Below are positions 2,811 to 46,274 of a stretch of DNA of 64,000 nucleotides, one piece after another. Positions within the stretch are counted from its first letter, which is position 1. Each line of letters starts with the position of its first letter. Source of the DNA: Callorhinchus milii (Eukaryota); the NCBI RefSeq assembly GCF_018977255.1, contig NW_024704742.1:74960001-75024000 (forward strand). Reading direction: 5' to 3'. The notes beneath the pieces are model-generated. The model was not told the origin of the DNA. It worked only from the letters and a program-made list of their open reading frames with translations, and ran no database searches. A program made the translations under genes and the position numbers.

Positions 2811-3010
2811 ATATTGAGCAGTGAGAGGATTACCAGGGACATTGTACAGAAGTTTGATGTTTTCATTAGGAACCAGAAAAGTAGGAAAAAGCAGGAGTGG
2901 TTTTGTTTTATATAAGATTCCATACCAAAATTTAGAAGCTTTGAAAATTCACAGGGCAACAGATCAAAGTTGGCTTTCAAGAAAATGAACAAAACTCTTC
3001 AAATAAGACA

Positions 3011-3016
3011 TTTATT
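3011..3016 (-). promoter_or_regulatory. AATAAA polyadenylation signal of the SPINK-like gene
   Basis: tttatt on plus strand about 70 nt past the stop codon. Confidence 0.65.
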
Positions 3017-3086
3017 AAAGATTTCAATGTACCACAGAAGTTGCTGTTAATAACAGATGGCAAACATTATGGATTTCGAAAATCAA

Positions 3087-3183
3087 TTACAAGCCACCAA
3101 TCCACTTGGGATCATCAAAGTGGATTCCATCAGGGATTTCACATTTTCCAACCTTGAAGATAGCAACATCTGTCTTCAATACC
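3087..3183 (-). CDS. SPINK-like terminal exon (W)VLKTDVAIFKVGKCEIPDGIHFDDPKWIGGL*
   Basis: Acceptor cgtag| in phase 2; supplies the sixth Kazal Cys (I-x3-G-x-C); stop TAA 3089-3087. Confidence 0.88.
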
Positions 3184-3479
3184 CTACGGAGTTTTTTTAA
3201 AAAAGTCTTGTGTATACAGTAGCATCTAGTTATAAGGCTGGTTTCACTCCACATGCTCACAGCCTGCTGCTGTCTCACTTTCTAAATAGAAAAACACGAG
3301 TGGAAGAGCAGCACTATTGGTGACCAAAAGATACATATTTCCAAATATCACAGCGTTTTTTATTTTTAAACATAGAACATGTATAAAATCTAGTACTGTG
3401 AGATTTGAAAGTTTGGTGGATTGAGAAGCTGAGTTTTTCCAAAATAATCACTTCATTAAAGAGTTCTCTGATTTCTTAC

Positions 3480-3589
3480 CAATTGTGAAGGCACAGCAGG
3501 CACTCATCGGAGTAGGTTTCAGCATCTGTTCCACATACTGGGTTGTATTCTCGAGTACAAACTGGTAGCCTGAATGTTGCACAGTTCGG
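3480..3589 (-). CDS. SPINK-like exon 3, Kazal core [36 protein letters not shown]
   Basis: Kazal signature C-x7-C-G-x-D-x2-T-Y-x2-E-C-x2-C; acceptor tttag|, donor |gtaaga; 110 nt, phase 0 to 2. Confidence 0.93.
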
Positions 3590-4627
3590 CTAAATCACCA
3601 AAACAGAGACCATTACAAACGTGACCATCAATAAATACACATGATATTAAAAACAAGAGCATTTGGAATAAAGCAATGAGATTTTGAATGCAATTAAACT
3701 AGAAGTTACTCACAGTTCAACATTTACATATGCTGCAACTGCACATATTGAAAAGCCTTTACTGCAAGAAGCAGTTCATCTTCCAGCAAAGATAAACCTC
3801 ATCCAGAAACTACCATTGGCAGTACAATTTCTGGCCACCCCTCCTTTTTTTTTACACACACACATGTGATACTCTAATGCTTTAATTTTTACATACACTT
3901 AGATCTAAATCATTGAATATTCACCAGATACTGCTGATATAATTGGAAACTTTCAATTCAGGATTAGATAATAGAAAACCAGACTACCTTTTAACCTCAC
4001 TCCGATTCATGGTTGGTTTCTGATAACTCTCTATATACACAGTGAATGTTTCCAATCACTGCTGTGCTGGTCGTATTGCTTTGGCCCCCGTACTCTATTC
4101 TAAATTTTTGTTGCTTTGACTACAGCTCTTCTCACACATGTATCACATGTACATTTGGGTTTAGGAATTGTTGTTGATACTGCTAATTGTTCTGCACTCA
4201 AACCAAAAAAAACATTTAATGAGGAGCAAAAGATCTCAGATTAAAGTGATAAACAAATGTATATTCTCCATCGATCCTAAAACAATATCCTGTTTCATCC
4301 ACCTATTTATACATTTATTCCAGGAAATAGGATTCCTCTAAATAAGGAAAATTGTAAAGTAGTGCATTTAATTCTTTAATCAATCAAAAATTAATTTAAT
4401 AAAAAAATTCTGTGTCCACCGCCTTGGGACGTCTTCCTGACGTGAAAGGTGCTTTACAAATGTAATGTTAACAATAGCATCTTGCATTTATATAGTGCCC
4501 TTCACACAGAGCAGCGTCTCAGAGCACTAACAAAAGGAGGCACAGTACTCTTCTCCCATCCCTCTTAAGTTTATTAACACTTTTAACCACAAAATGAAAC
4601 TTATTTATTATATATACACACACTTAC

Positions 4628-4680
4628 AGGTTTACCAGTTTTCGCACCCATTATATCAGTTATGTGGTCAGTTGTAGATA
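4628..4680 (-). CDS. SPINK-like putative exon 2 (53 nt, (V)STTDHITDIMGAKTGKP)
   Basis: Acceptor ttgcag| and donor |gtaagt; open frame, phase 1 to 0, joining exon 1 to the Kazal exon. Confidence 0.65.
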
Positions 4681-5722
4681 CTGCAAGTACTTGAAATGCA
4701 AACAGACAGTTAAATTCCTACAGGTTTACTGTTCATTTACTATAAAAGCAAACTGTTGTCTAAAGTGAAATTAAAACAGAAAAGTCAAGGTTGAAGGTCT
4801 CAACGGCCAAAGGAAAAAGGTATTGGCAGAGGTGGGCAATGTTGTGGAAGTGAGGGAATGTCAAACAAGTGAACGCAGATGTTAGGACAGATGGGGGTCA
4901 AATATGAAACTGGTCGAGTTGTGATAACCAACAGGTGAATGGTCTGCCAACTGTAAGGATTATTATCATCATCAACAGACAAGACTGGGCAATTTAGGCA
5001 ATACTGGTGAGCAATAGATATTGTTAAAGCACATACCCAAGTAGGCAGGCACAAAAGAATTAAGAACTTCCCACATAAAGCTGGCAGCTAAGGCTCATTG
5101 AAAGATTAGGACAGATTATAGGGATGCTGATCCAAATTTGATCTCATCAGTATTGGTGACATGCAATATAGGTAAATGTGGCAAAGCAGCAATTCTGTGG
5201 CTCAGTGGCTTTCACATCTCAATTTCAACTTCCAGCCCTACACAAAAACCTCTTGTAGAATAAATGACCCAGAAAACGTGTGCCCAATAATAATTAAGAT
5301 CGTCCTGCAAAGGTTCAGAAATGGTGAATTTTAAAGCAAGTTTTCGTACAATAAAAAAATGAAACTTTAATTCCCGATCCTTCACCTGTTTAGGTTTTTC
5401 CTATTCCACTATTTCAACGGGGAAATAGTGTGCAGAATGGAGAAATGCATACTTGTGCATTGGAATAGCATTCAGCTTTTTGAATCACCATGTCCTCCAT
5501 AACAGCTTCACCTTTTCTAAACTAGTCCTATAGATTTACAAACATGAACTGATAACTTTGCTCTCTTCTCTTAATAATAAGTCATTTGGTGCCATTGCAA
5601 ATAAAATCACCAAATCTCAATATTGACTCAAATCATTCGCTCAGATAAGTGACTGACAATCACACTACTACTTGCTCCAAACTGGGTTTTCGGCAAACTT
5701 ATGCCCATGTTAGACCAATTAC

Positions 5723-5759
5723 CTGCAGCGAAGGTAAGTAGAGTCCCACACCAAGTCAT
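5723..5759 (-). CDS. Kazal-type (SPINK-like) inhibitor, putative coding exon 1 (MTWCGTLLTFAA, phase 1)
   Basis: ATG at 5759-5757, short hydrophobic stretch, donor CAG|gtaatt; phase fits the next exon. Signal peptide is short, so the true start is uncertain. Confidence 0.5.
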
Positions 5760-7149
5760 CCCCACAATGTTTCTTTGCTCTCACTGCCACTCGTCGCCTC
5801 ATTGATAGTCTCAGAGGCAGAAAAACCCGTGCTGTGAAATCTGCAGAACACCTGAAGCTTTATCTGCACTAATGGGCAATGACTGGATATAACTGGATCA
5901 TTTGCACTAACTCCCTGTACTCCAGTTTCCTTTACCCGTGAACCACACATACTCCTCCATTTCCTTGCAGTACCTATAATCAAACTGCACCAAAGAAAAC
6001 TCAGCTTCAATTTACTGTACGCTATCACCCTCACAAGTGTGTAGCTCACAAATAGGGTTTATCGTGTACCCAGAACACTACAAATTGCAATCTTACTTGT
6101 TTTTGTATCGGAATAAAAATAAATAATGGGAATAAAAGCACAACAGAATAGATATTTCTTCCTTATTAACGTGACTGTTTCACGTGATTTTATTAACAAT
6201 AATGTCAAAAATACTAGAGGAAAATAGAGAAATGCAAAACATTATTACATAACAAATAAACTAAACAGTCTCCTAATTCAGAACAATTTGTACTGATCAC
6301 AGCAGGTCAAATTGCTATTATGGAACATTTTCTACAATGAAAAATTGTATCCTTAATCCAAGTTTGTAAAGAACAATACATTTTCTCCCAAGACACAGAT
6401 GCATTAGAGAATGAAATCCACCTGATGCCAAGCCTATTTGTTGAGGTACTACATAAAGGCTTTCGCAAGGATTTTGCCTCATGGAAATATTGCCCCATGG
6501 AAGGAGAGATGGTTGGATGGTTGAAAGCAAACTGTAAGTAAATTTATTTCCACAGATCAGTGAGTCAGTGACAAGATGAGATCAATTTAAGATTGTTAGC
6601 AATGAGCAAATGTAAGGATGTTAGCAGAATGCCCTGCCAGGTTCTATCGTTGAGTCAAAACCATATTAGCTTTCAAAAGGGAACTAGATAAATATCTAAA
6701 ATGGAGTAAATTACAGGAATATAGGGAAAGGTCAGGTAAATTGGATTGAAAAAATAAATTTTCTTGATTAAATATTTCTTGATTTATGCCATAAATCAAG
6801 AAATATTCCATCAAGAAAGACTGGAAACAAAACATTGATTTAAACAAGCCTAGACTAGTGCAAATGTTCGGCGGGCCACTTTCTTGATTAGGGTTAGCCA
6901 CCGCTGCCCCAGCTATTGAGGTATTGCTAATAAAGAACAAAACAGCAATGTTTCTTTTTATATCGCTTTTGATTAATGCAAGAAATGGGTTAAGGAACAT
7001 CACAACGTTTACACATTACCAGATTAGTGGTCAGTATGAGTTACCAATCACCAACCGTTTCGTAGCATGCCCTCAAAATCATAAATTCCAATTAATTAAA
7101 AACTTCACAACCCACATTTTCTTTCTGCACCAAATTCTGCACTCCATGT

Positions 7150-7575
7150 GTCAGCGTGGCCTACTCTCGCCTCTGAGTCAAAAGGTCGTGAGTTCAAGCC
7201 CCCGTCGGGATTTGGAATCACATAATGTAAACCGATACTCCAATGCAGTGCTGGAGGAGTGTTGCATTGTCAGAGGTGCAGTAGACGTTAAACTGAGGTC
7301 CCGTCTGTCTGTTCCGGTGGATGTTCAAGATCCCGTGGCACTGTTCAAAAAGAGGAGGGAGTATCTCCCGGTGTCCTGGCCAACAATCCCCCAAATAAAA
7401 TGGGTCACTCACGCCATGGCTGTTTGTGGGACATTGCTGTGCGCAACTGGCTGCTGCATTTCGCCCACAAAAGACACAGTCAAACCAGTTGACCGTATAT
7501 CCTGTGAAGCGCTGTGAGACGCCTCAATGGCAATGATACGGTGCTATATGAAACGCAAGGTTTATTATTATTGTT
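7150..7575 (+). mobile_element. DeuSINE-domain SINE (SacSINE1/AmnSINE1-related) with L2-like tail
   Basis: tRNA-like head, Deu-type core (ggtggatgttcaagatcccgtggcactgttcaaaaagag...gtgtcctggccaaca), 3' tail ending in (TTA)n. Confidence 0.8.
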
Positions 7576-7599
7576 ATTATCATTACCCCCATCCCCGCT

Positions 7600-7790
7600 G
7601 CCTTGCCAGGCCCCGCTGGCCTCCCGCATGACCCGCGTGCCCTCGTTCCACCATCGGTGGCCGCGACACCATCGGCGGCTGCGCTTTCCGCTCCTTCGCC
7701 CCGAAAACTCTGGACCACTCTTCCTCGGCCTCTGCGCCCCTTCCTGCCCCGTCTTCAGGTCGCGGCTGAAGACCTTCCCCACCCACCGGG
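7600..7790 (+). mobile_element. CpG-rich L2 3' fragment inside the PPA2 promoter
   Basis: ccaccatcggcggctgcgcttt...ccccgaaaactctgga...tcttcaggtcgcggctgaagacct matches the TIGGRAFS..APKLWN..FK..LKT end of other L2 copies here. Confidence 0.7.
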
Positions 7791-7939
7791 AGTCCAGGCT
7801 CCGCCATCGTTGAGCCGCGGGGCCGCTGTCCTGCGCCGCCTGAGGGGCGCTGTGTGAATGCAGGTTGCGGCCTGTTCCCGGCGGAGCCCGACAGCGGGGG
7901 CGCTGTGACCCGGCGCCCCGCTCCCCGCTGCCCGAGCTC

Positions 7940-8072
7940 ATGGCAGGCCTCAGCTGCAGCCTCGGAGCCTGGTTTCCGCGCCGCCGCGGCCTCGGCCTCT
8001 TGTTGGGGGGCCTGAGCGGGCGGCGCGGGGCCCGGAGCGGGTGCGAGCGGAGAGAAGAGCGCGTTTACCTGA
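7940..8072 (+). CDS. PPA2: PPA2 coding exon 1, Arg-rich mitochondrial transit peptide (MAGLSCSLGAWFPRRRGLGLLLGGLSGRRGARSGCERREERVYL)
   Basis: ATG in CpG island; Arg/Leu/Ser/Gly-rich with no acidic residues for 35 aa; donor A|gtgagt in phase 1 matches next exon. Confidence 0.85.
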
Positions 8073-8159
8073 GTGAGTGAGTGAGTGAGTGAGCACCGCC
8101 TCACACACCACAGCGCTCACCGCACCTCAACACCAGCAGCGGCTCAGGGCCTGGGGGTG

Positions 8160-8785
8160 AGGGAGGGCCACACAGGGCCGCATCCCAGAGAGCTCCACCA
8201 TGGCGGAGCAGAGGGGGGAGGGGGGTGGGGGCGGCAGAGGTAGGAGAGGAGAGACTGCGGCCATGACCTGAAGGTGGGGCAGGAAGGGTAGAGGTAGAGG
8301 AAGAGTGTTCCAGAGTTCCAGGGAGTAGCGGCTGAAAGCGCGGCCGCCGACGGTGGAACGGAGGGCACGAGGGACGTGAAGAAGGCCGGAGCCGGTCGAG
8401 CGGAGGCAGCGGGTAGTGGGTCGGTCGGGGTGGGGTGGGTGGGGGGGGGTTTGGGTAAGTAGGTGAGAGAGGCGGTGTGTGAAGATGGGAGTGGTGGACC
8501 GTGTCGAAGGCGGTGGAAAGGTCCCGGAGGATGGGGAGGCAGAGGGAGCCCCGGTCACACACAGGGAGGTCATCGTTTGTGACTTTGACGAGTGCCGTAT
8601 CTGTGCAGTGGACAGAGCGGAAACCAGACTGGAGAGGTGAAGAGCGACAACACGTTCCAGAGCTTTGGCGAGGGAGGGAGGGAGGGCGGGAGGGCGGGTT
8701 GGAAATGGGACGGTAATTTGTCAAGTTCGAGGAGTCATGGGTGGGATTTTTGAGCAGGGGAATGATGGCAGTGGTTTTAAACCAA
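8160..8785 (-). mobile_element. L2 LINE, internally deleted
   Basis: [10 protein letters not shown]...[34 protein letters not shown], followed by the L2 3' end. Confidence 0.85.
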
Positions 8786-9406
8786 ACCAACCCGGCCTAA
8801 ACTAACTCAGCAACGACAACTTGCCTTTTAAATAGCCCTTCCTGAAGGGCAATGTCTCAAAGAAATTTCACGGGGTTGCGGTTTGTTCTCAGCAGGGGAG
8901 AGGGAGGTGGCCAGTTTAAAGATTTAAGACGGGCCATTAAGCCAAAGACTGGTTGATGGAGGAAGTTCCAGAGCTTCGGAGCCTAGAAACTAGTCTTGGC
9001 TGCTTATGGTGTTGCGGGGAGAATGGGGCATGTGCAGAAGCCTGAGTTAGCTGAAGTTAGGATGAGATCGAAGAGATCAGGGAATGGATGGATTCATAGG
9101 CAATGGTGACGACATTGACATGATCCGCTGGGAGTCAGTGGAGACTGATGAGGACTGGGGAACTCCTAATCAAGGAAATGGAAATTATTGAACCTCAAAT
9201 GTTGATAACATTAATAATAATCTTTGTATTTGATATAGCACCTTATCACGTCTACAAGACATCTCAAAGAGCTTTACAGAACATACTGTAAAATGAATTG
9301 ACTGTATATTGTTTGCATGAAATGCAGCAGCCAATTTCACACAGCAGAGTCCCATAAATAGTCGTGGATTGATGATATGTTGCTTTGTCTCACTTTACTG
9401 TTGTAG

Positions 9407-9471
9407 AGGATGCTACAGGGAGATATATTTCACCTTTTCATGATGTCCCACTCTATGCAGTAAACGATCAG
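9407..9471 (+). CDS. PPA2: PPA2 exon (K)DATGRYISPFHDVPLYAVNDQ
   Basis: YISPFHD[IV]PL motif of eukaryotic family I PPases; ag/gt boundaries; 65 nt. Confidence 0.95.
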
Positions 9472-44445: not shown

Positions 44446-45680
44446 CTATATCCAGCGATTGTAAGGCCCTGTAACCCGTGTAAAGGCATATGGAGATGCT
44501 GTAGTTACTGAGTTTGTTGTAAAAGTCATGGTCCTTTGAGTAAGAGTTTTGATAAAACGTAGCTGCGCTGCTTCTGCAAGTTCATGTGAATCTGTGACTT
44601 CCCGTTTTGATTTTTTGCTGTAAGATTTGGTAGGCACATAGTCCACACCTAGTCGTTCGGCTTCTTCTTCTCTTTCTCTGGCCTTTTCAGCCACCTTGGC
44701 CTCCCACATTGCTAATCCATGCTTTGCCTCATTCATGCTCTTGTGTTGGTAAAATACGAGAGATATCCTAGTTGGGTGATTTCTGTTGGGGTATTTCAGT
44801 GGGGTTGTTGCGTGTAGTTCACGCTTTGCACACTCAATAAGAACTGACCCATGAGATGGTGCTACTGCAACCCCTCCTATATCTGAATCCTGGAAGTTAT
44901 GCTCACTGTCTGACCAGATTTCCTGAGGCTCTTCTGGAGCACCTACATTATTCTGTGGAGGCATAGAAGAGATGATTTCTGGCACTCTGGAATTGATCAT
45001 GGGGGCAGGCAGCCCTGCTTGTGAGGTGTTTGCCATGTCAAAATTAATTGATGGAAGAAGTCTTGAGAGACCGTTAGCTCTCAGCATATTAAGTTCATTT
45101 TCTTTATTTTCTATCTGGAAAGAATTAGCAGGACGATGATCATGGGCTAAGTATGGGCTTGTGTATGCTGGGTATTGGCTGCTATGTGCAACAGCAGCAT
45201 GGTCCAGACTTGGATGACCTAAACTGGACACTGGTTTGGAAGCAGTATCCATAAGCTGTGGCTCAATTTGAGGGGATGATTCATAGTGAGGATATGCTCT
45301 AATTTGTGGGATTGTTGGTATTCTGTTATCAATCTGGCAATTACTGTAGCCATTGACTGGCATGCCATAGTCACCATAGTTCCAAAATCTACCCATACAC
45401 ATCTGGTTATTGCCATACCTGTAAGAGTTGGAAAATTGCTGGTAGAGAGTCTGAATTGGTGGCAGGGTAAGCTTGTTCACTGGAACCTGATAGCGGTACA
45501 TATCCATGTGGTGTGTGAGTGAGGGACAGTAAGAGCCCATATAATGATGGTAGTTGTCCATGGATGTGCTCCCATTGCACTGATAGCCTGGGTAAGCACT
45601 TGGTGGGGCTGACTGGTAAAAACCGGCCACTGGATGTCTAGGCATTGCATGTTGCTGAATAGCTGGAGGAATCCCAGGAC
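44446..45680 (-). CDS. TET2: TET2 last coding exon (low-complexity insert plus C-terminal [42 protein letters not shown])
   Basis: 399-aa ORF extended to acceptor tacag| at 45680 (phase 1); third Fe-ligand His and 2-oxoglutarate-binding Arg present; adjacency to PPA2 supports TET2 over TET1/TET3. Confidence 0.97.
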
Positions 45681-46274
45681 CTGTAGGAAATCAAAGCAAT
45701 AAAAATAAGTTTACATGGAATAAGATATGTAAACTGAAGTTCTGAAGTTAACATTATATGAACTGTAGCTTCTAGCTTTATGAGGAACAACTTCATAATC
45801 AATAATGGGATTCCTTTGTAACAGCAGGTCAGTTTGTTACCTACTGCAAAGCTGATCAACTGTTTCTATTCTACAATGTGTACGGAAACTGGAATCAATG
45901 GAGGCTGTAGTGCAAACATGAAGCTTTCCCACTGTTCACCTCATTCCAATCTGATGAAACTTCTTGAATAATTACCCTTTTGTTCCCCCTAATGTAGCTA
46001 ATTTTGGATCCACTTCAAAAGTTCCTTCCCCATTCCATGCCTTTCAAAGTTACAGAACAATGAGGTGAAAATTACAATGTGTGATGTGTTAGTTATCACA
46101 TAGTTAATAAAGTTAGTCAATGGGCCAGTCAATAACTCAGTCACAATAGTTGGACCTGAAGATAGATTGCACTGCCATTGAACGTGAAACCCATGGATTT
46201 GATGTCCAATGTCACAGTACCAATTTTCACTCTGAATCCCTTCATTTCAGAGGAAGTTGTCTGGTTTCCTTATA

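Follow-up and report, generated by a model that had tools for sequence, protein, structure and literature searches.

The DNA analysed here, referred to as the window, is a stretch of 64,000 nucleotides from Callorhinchus milii (contig NW_024704742.1, positions 74,960,001 to 75,024,000 of the forward strand). A SPINK gene, coding for a Kazal-type protease inhibitor, lies on its minus strand beside plus-strand exons of PPA2 type (Table 1). The four minus-strand exons of a preliminary description, made from the sequence, were all found with GT donors, AG acceptors and intron phases 1/0/2, and the AATAAA reported downstream of the reading frame starts at 3016. Four coding exons with phases 1/0/2 are the pattern of single-domain SPINK genes, and the gene beside PPA2 follows it. 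The gene belongs to the Kazal inhibitor family (Pfam Kazal_1, MEROPS I1). Exon 3 alone matched Kazal_1 with E 1.3e-13 and 51.2 bits, against a gathering cut-off of 21, and was the sole Kazal-like stretch (E 6e-19; the next had 0.71) when all 3687 six-frame stretches of the window were compared. Its best single-domain PDB match was SPINK2 (2jxd, E 6e-12). A match to Kazal clusters in the ESM Atlas (best 0.89) is taken as a lead only, and a general search against representative proteins gave multi-domain proteins only among the best 150 of 3201 matches. As described earlier, P1 of the reactive loop is Arg; a trypsin-like target may be predicted from this residue only if the domain folds.

Table 1. 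Features of the SPINK locus and of the adjoining PPA2 start, in window positions.
Feature	Positions	Strand	Details
Exon 1, start of signal peptide (predicted)	5723-5759	-	37 nt, phase-1 donor CAG/GTAATT
Exon 2, 53-nt form of the preliminary description	4628-4680	-	same frame as 62-nt form
Exon 2, preferred 62-nt form	4628-4689	-	acceptor 4689, hydropathy
Exon 3: Cys1-Cys5, reactive loop with P1 Arg, helix	3480-3589	-	110 nt; Kazal_1, 2jxd, contig ends
Ancestral coding exon 4: strand 3, Cys6, 17-residue tail	3087-3183	-	97 nt, SPINK profile
Last exon in RNA-type contigs, all 3' UTR	3007-3281	-	X2 record 9, X3 record 17
AATAAA poly(A) signal	3011-3016	-	sequence; X3 record 17 end at 3007
Polymorphic site	3508	-	P15' Asp (window, X3) or Asn (X1, X2, X5, both public models)
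Polymorphic site	3520	-	Glu or Gln (X1, X2)
First coding exon of XP_007890236.1	3996-4010	-	5 codons, poor donor, no signal peptide
First coding exon of A0A4W3J8B9	4458-4487	-	10 codons, inside high-copy repeat
Candidate PPA2 exon 1	7940-8072	+	donor GTGAGT, in frame with exon 2 at 9407
CpG island at PPA2 start	7501-8500	.	GC 0.67-0.68, CpG o/e 0.73-0.93

Homologues were collected by an exon-3-seeded search together with the best 120 of 1070 matches from a profile containing this locus. From these 130 proteins 21 (multi-domain, long or incomplete) were dropped, leaving 109 single-domain proteins. The choice of the last exon was examined with a SPINK profile of 101 single-domain precursors, from which the two public models of the locus had been left out. 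Exon 3 joined to the acceptor at 3183 gave 80.9 bits, and the next best among 208 AGs and read-through of the intron gave 71.6. The exon beginning at 3183, best of 209 alternatives, is thus the true ancestral last exon, as had been proposed. When this acceptor is used, the gene encodes six Cys in the 1-5/2-4/3-6 spacing, and the Cys5-Cys6 interval is 17 residues, as in 105 of the 109 listed homologues. It can also be aligned to the last exon of P0161, a C. milii paralogue (7 of 14 identities), and its motif DVAIFKVGKC is close to DVQIFKMGRC of bird SPINK2. No candidate was found with the exon-4 frame as search query.

The acceptor at 3183 is weak and A-rich, with a pyrimidine tract of 0.60 and a run of seven purines, compared with a longest run of at most 3 in six PPA2 acceptors. 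The strongest acceptor lies 98 nt upstream at 3281, and its pyrimidine tract (0.80) is the highest of the 21 AGs in 3020-3440. Joining 3480 to 3281 creates a TGA across the junction, where exon 3 ends in TG and the new exon begins with A. The stop falls three residues after Cys5; strand 3 and Cys6 are lost and Cys3 is kept.

Contigs of four runs were aligned to the window: X1-X3, which come from one study and are only guessed to be RNA, and X5. X2 record 9 is 389 nt long and has a depth of 6.63; its first 187 letters lie on 3095-3281. An X2 piece with that depth starts exactly at the exon-3 donor, 3480, at distances of 29 and 41 from the sites 3508 and 3520. X3 record 17 lies on 3281-3007, carries 30 more letters past 3281 and terminates at 3007, four bases past the AATAAA. 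These two records explain all X2 and X3 depth in 2900-3353. A further piece from X3 stops at the exon-3 acceptor, 3589, as judged by a bin depth of 0.38 (expected 0.377 for 3589; 0.335 and 0.419 for its neighbours). X5 is unbroken across 2900-4105, and only unspliced pieces were seen in X1 at the SPINK gene. The skipped 198 nt, 3479-3282, would form a GT..AG intron.

Thus, only the 3281 form, with five Cys, was seen in X2 and X3. The junction 3480/3183 expected from the preliminary description is used by no contig; X2 and X3 both leave the genome at 3281. X1-X3 are of low depth and unstated tissue, and assemblies drop minor forms, so that 3183 may be used elsewhere. Of the 98-aa, six-Cys open reading frame described earlier, the coding capacity stood: a 98-codon frame with six Cys is encoded through 3183. 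Its product fared less well: splicing, so far as it was seen, goes to 3281 with a stop after Cys5, and the public models never reach exon 4. The exon chain through 3183 is therefore confirmed at the sequence level, and splicing of exactly that chain is not.

The 3480-3281 joint is deduced from contig positions, ends and depth, not read directly. If the breaks at 3281 arose in assembly or alignment, or from a variant in the genomes of those individuals, they would say nothing about the mRNA. Such an origin would suit runs that are only guessed to be RNA and a joint that is deduced, and contigs do break at SNP bubbles elsewhere too, e.g. at 7116-7145; but here the break falls on one and the same base in two runs, behind the strongest AG; its partner end coincides with the exon-3 donor, and another contig end with the exon-3 acceptor. 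We consider such an origin highly improbable.

At the 5' end the gene model was altered. For exon 2, the acceptor 4680 given earlier was replaced by 4689, a second AG nine bases upstream, in frame and with a better signal peptide. The 4689 form adds three hydrophobic residues and gives a 101-codon precursor. Its best 10-residue hydropathy is 2.73, compared with 1.89 for 4680; 14 of 101 listed homologues fall at or below the former value and 1 of 101 at or below the latter. Judged by the hydropathy window alone, the signal peptide is weak with 4680 and within the homologue range with 4689. After exons 3 and 4 are accounted for, 92 letters (62+30) of X2 record 9 are left. This is suggestive of a 62-nt exon 2 plus assembly overlap, and other readings fit too. 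The exon 1 donor has the best consensus among the top-scoring of 160 combinations, although the profile does not single out exon 1 (rank 5 of 160, 86.6 vs 86.8 bits). The contigs contain no RNA support for exon 1. X2 has no extra depth on 5624-5850 (5.0, where 6.14 would be expected if 39 record-9 letters lay there), a count that short contig pieces may escape, so that exon 1 is neither shown nor excluded by it. An out-of-frame ATG is present at 5802-5800 on the minus strand, 43 nt upstream of the SPINK ATG, with a frame overlapping exon 1; as read by hand, the X2 and X3 allele at 5793 would close this upstream frame after three codons.

The gene had been called hidden. In fact two public C. 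milii models, XP_007890236.1 and A0A4W3J8B9, map to the locus, which is already annotated, though wrongly, and the family is well known. An exon-3-seeded profile search gave nine candidates in all, the best of which, P0151, is XP_007890236.1 (41 aa, 'serine protease inhibitor Kazal-type 2-like', Callorhinchus milii), found under the 'eukprot' source only and not under NCBI or nr. A0A4W3J8B9 ('spink2.1', 47 aa) clusters with it. Both models contain exon 3 letter for letter except for Asn in place of Asp at one site; both lack a signal peptide and Cys6, and leave exons 1, 2 and the 3183 exon unused. XP_007890236.1 stops three residues after Cys5, whereas A0A4W3J8B9 reads into intron 3. The first exon of XP_007890236.1 was rejected as the true start on account of its poor donor and missing signal peptide; a change in X2 at 4010 removes its ATG. 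That of A0A4W3J8B9 was likewise rejected (no signal peptide, repeat); summed contig depth exceeds 10,000 in the bin 4262-4488, over this exon. No full-length six-Cys version of the locus was present among the nine candidates and the best 120 of 1070 matches. No paper on this SPINK locus, or on the conservation of its gene neighbourhood, was found in a literature search that was judged from listings and covered mostly freely accessible papers. What is new here is the corrected exon structure, by which two faulty public gene models are set right, and the evidence for a truncated spliced form.

C. milii also has ClTI-1-like/SPINK4-like paralogues with a single Kazal domain (P0156, P0161; V9L482, 'pancreatic secretory trypsin inhibitor'). 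P0156 and P0161 are intact, 81 aa long, have a strong signal peptide and end at Cys6. In P0163 and P0158, public models of C. milii paralogues, the last exons differ and Cys6 is missing at its place, which suggests that mis-modelling or variable splicing of the last exon is frequent in these small genes. The record of P0222, a SPINK of fish type, bears the label Enterococcus faecium and a contig of 433 nt, and is probably contaminated.

Several features of the exon sequences, read directly, depart from those of the homologues and are further signs of relaxed constraint. Both exon-3 polymorphisms alter the protein. At P15' the 109 listed homologues have Asn in 100, Thr in 8, Ser in 1 and Asp in none. 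Asp is unable to donate the hydrogen bonds made by the Asn side-chain amide. In the accessible part of PMC1236909 the P15' Asn is given as one of two conserved contact residues, and in that of PMC3082530, on a horseshoe-crab Kazal inhibitor, the amide of its side chain is bonded to the carbonyls of P2 and P1'. After the GxD motif comes an Ala, found in 0 of the 109 listed homologues, 105 of which have Gly there. The tail after Cys6 is 17 residues long, compared with 0 in 87 of the 109 and a maximum of 9, and a single change would turn the codon after Cys6 into TAA. A long tail together with such a codon is the pattern expected from a lost stop.

From these alleles, the homology and the contig ends, all observed directly, we favour the interpretation, to which we would give an even chance, that the locus is a SPINK2-like single-domain Kazal inhibitor gene of Callorhinchus milii losing its function. 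The gene would still be transcribed and spliced. Owing to the weak A-rich tract at the ancestral acceptor 3183, the spliceosome would take the stronger AG at 3281, and the stop at that junction would yield a product of 66-69 codons without strand 3 and Cys6 and with Cys3 unpaired. As the stop lies at the last junction, nonsense-mediated decay should spare the mRNA. Protease inhibition is probably covered by the intact C. milii paralogues, although with P1 Leu in P0156 and P0161 against Arg here they need not cover the same enzyme. We infer that the gene has become redundant and that its function is being lost. Several observations weigh against such decay. The exons contain no frameshifts or internal stops; all six Cys, the P1 Arg and the Cys spacing are retained; the canonical Asn allele at P15' occurs in both public models and, of the four runs, in X1, X2 and X5; and XP_007890236.1, which ends at the same residue as the 3281 form, has an end compatible with 7 of 21 nearby AGs and not with 3281 alone. 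In addition, Kazal domains with only two bridges are able to inhibit. If the decay reading is correct, the locus offers a small, clean case of gene loss through a decayed splice acceptor while the frame is still open.

The same observations can be read in favour of an ordinary working SPINK, a reading we consider possible but rather unlikely. The gene would then be spliced 5723/4689, 4628/3589 and 3480/3183 in pancreas, gut or male tract to give the 101-codon precursor, and the secreted protein would block trypsin-like proteases in a substrate-like manner through P1 Arg, the 3281 form reflecting leaky splicing elsewhere, in low-level or read-through transcripts of other tissues. An intact frame with six Cys in canonical spacing, an exon 4 motif still near that of bird SPINK2 and a signal peptide that is acceptable with 4689 would be expected of such a gene. 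The contigs over it are shallow (depth 3-11) and cover its introns as well, and at 6277-6690, on the side of the PPA2 island, the depth is 4-6 times higher; this distribution would fit read-through transcripts. A working gene is harder to reconcile with a weak acceptor at 3183 that no contig or public model uses, and with the Asp allele, the Ala for Gly and the long tail.

The SPINK gene stands head-to-head with PPA2-type exons on the plus strand, as had been reported, and the earlier estimate of about 2.2 kb between the two ATGs agrees with a candidate PPA2 ATG at 7940, 2181 nt from the SPINK ATG. We take the plus-strand exons from about 7940 to beyond 21600 to be PPA2 by their pyrophosphatase motifs. 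A 414-codon frame at 44446-45690 on the minus strand is convergent with them; by its motifs it is presumably the last exon of TET2, and TET2 and PPA2 are convergent in human too. The candidate PPA2 exon 1 is rich in Arg, Gly and Leu and resembles a mitochondrial leader. Its donor enters a (GAGT) repeat, so that GTGAGT donors occur several times in tandem, and inverted LINE-like fragments at 7600-7815 and 8190-8480 flank it in the CpG island. Inverted SINE-like copies lie at 7409-7584 and 9198-9372. Depth in X1-X3 reaches 21-28 at 6277-6690, compared with 3-5 over the SPINK introns, and in X5 it is 6; a minus-strand AATAAA is present at 6194 (6189-6194). The depth at 6277-6690 could come from a short divergent transcript of the PPA2 CpG island. 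A near-perfect hairpin, whose 29-nt arms have a complementarity of 93%, lies at 6760-6818 within high-copy sequence and resembles the remnant of a small transposon.

The comparison of the gene with SPINK1-type genes held in part: it is a single-domain SPINK with 1/0/2 phases, but in pairwise comparison SPINK2, not SPINK1, is closest. Among the 130 listed proteins the best non-self pairwise matches were bird SPINK2 (e.g. P0220), with E 2e-22, and in a tree of 42 rows and 52 columns the window gene fell in no supported set. Human SPINK2 is at 4q12 and not beside PPA2, and the human SPINK1 cluster is at 5q32. In the accessible part of PMC8040251, the distance between TET2 and ARHGEF38 is about 0.1 Mb in gar and in birds, and 0.4 Mb in human (table S1B, species order as in the paper's text), and ARHGEF37, at human 5:149.6 Mb, is a duplicate of ARHGEF38. 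That part of its supplement contains no SPINK or PPA2 row. A SPINK beside PPA2 as an old duplicate of the 5q cluster is thus a lead only; if other chimaeras and sharks also carry one there, this would help to place the ancestral SPINK locus.

A further explanation is that the short form works in its own right. The splice shift would then produce a minimal inhibitor with two bridges (Cys1-Cys5 and Cys2-Cys4) and a core of loop, hairpin and helix, in which Cys3 would be free or engaged in a dimer. The AlphaFold2 model of P0151 keeps loop, hairpin and helix with pLDDT 82 and has a TM-score of 0.80 to a SPINK2 variant (E 0.015); it was, however, derived from an alignment of full-length Kazals and is biased to that fold, and no Foldseek match reached E 0.001. 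The Asp allele would remove the Asn that holds the loop (PMC3082530, accessible part). We regard a functional short form as quite unlikely. Were it to inhibit, one splice shift would convert a classical Kazal domain to a minimal one in a vertebrate. The wider proposal is very unlikely in our estimate: a SPINK that changed its architecture by a splice shift to a minimal two-bridge core of the centipede type, secreted and inhibiting trypsin-like proteases, and whose PPA2-TET2 seat would go back to the vertebrate genome duplications as the old counterpart of the SPINK genes clustered near ARHGEF37 on human 5q.

Among known systems, SPINK2 (human 2jxd, bird SPINK2) resembles the gene in its P1 Arg and in its last exon; the long tail, the Ala for Gly, the Asp allele and the short spliced form set the C. 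milii gene apart from it. For the short form the nearest parallels are Kazal domains with two bridges. According to the available part of PMC6950245, ShSPI has 34 residues, two bridges and two strands, inhibits neutrophil elastase with a Ki of 12.6 nM and ends three residues after its last Cys, the C-terminal extent of the short form, although its Cys1-Cys2 loop is much shorter. EPI1a, in the part of PMC1236909 available, lacks Cys3 and Cys6 and is yet a stable inhibitor. ShSPI, EPI1a and LEKTI domain 6 share with the short form the absence of the 3-6 bridge. Atypical two-bridge domains lack both Cys3 and Cys6, whereas the short form keeps Cys3, here unpaired, and falls outside that class. ShSPI, EPI1a and LEKTI domain 6 are encoded in this reduced form, whereas in the C. 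milii gene Cys6 would be lost through a splice shift.
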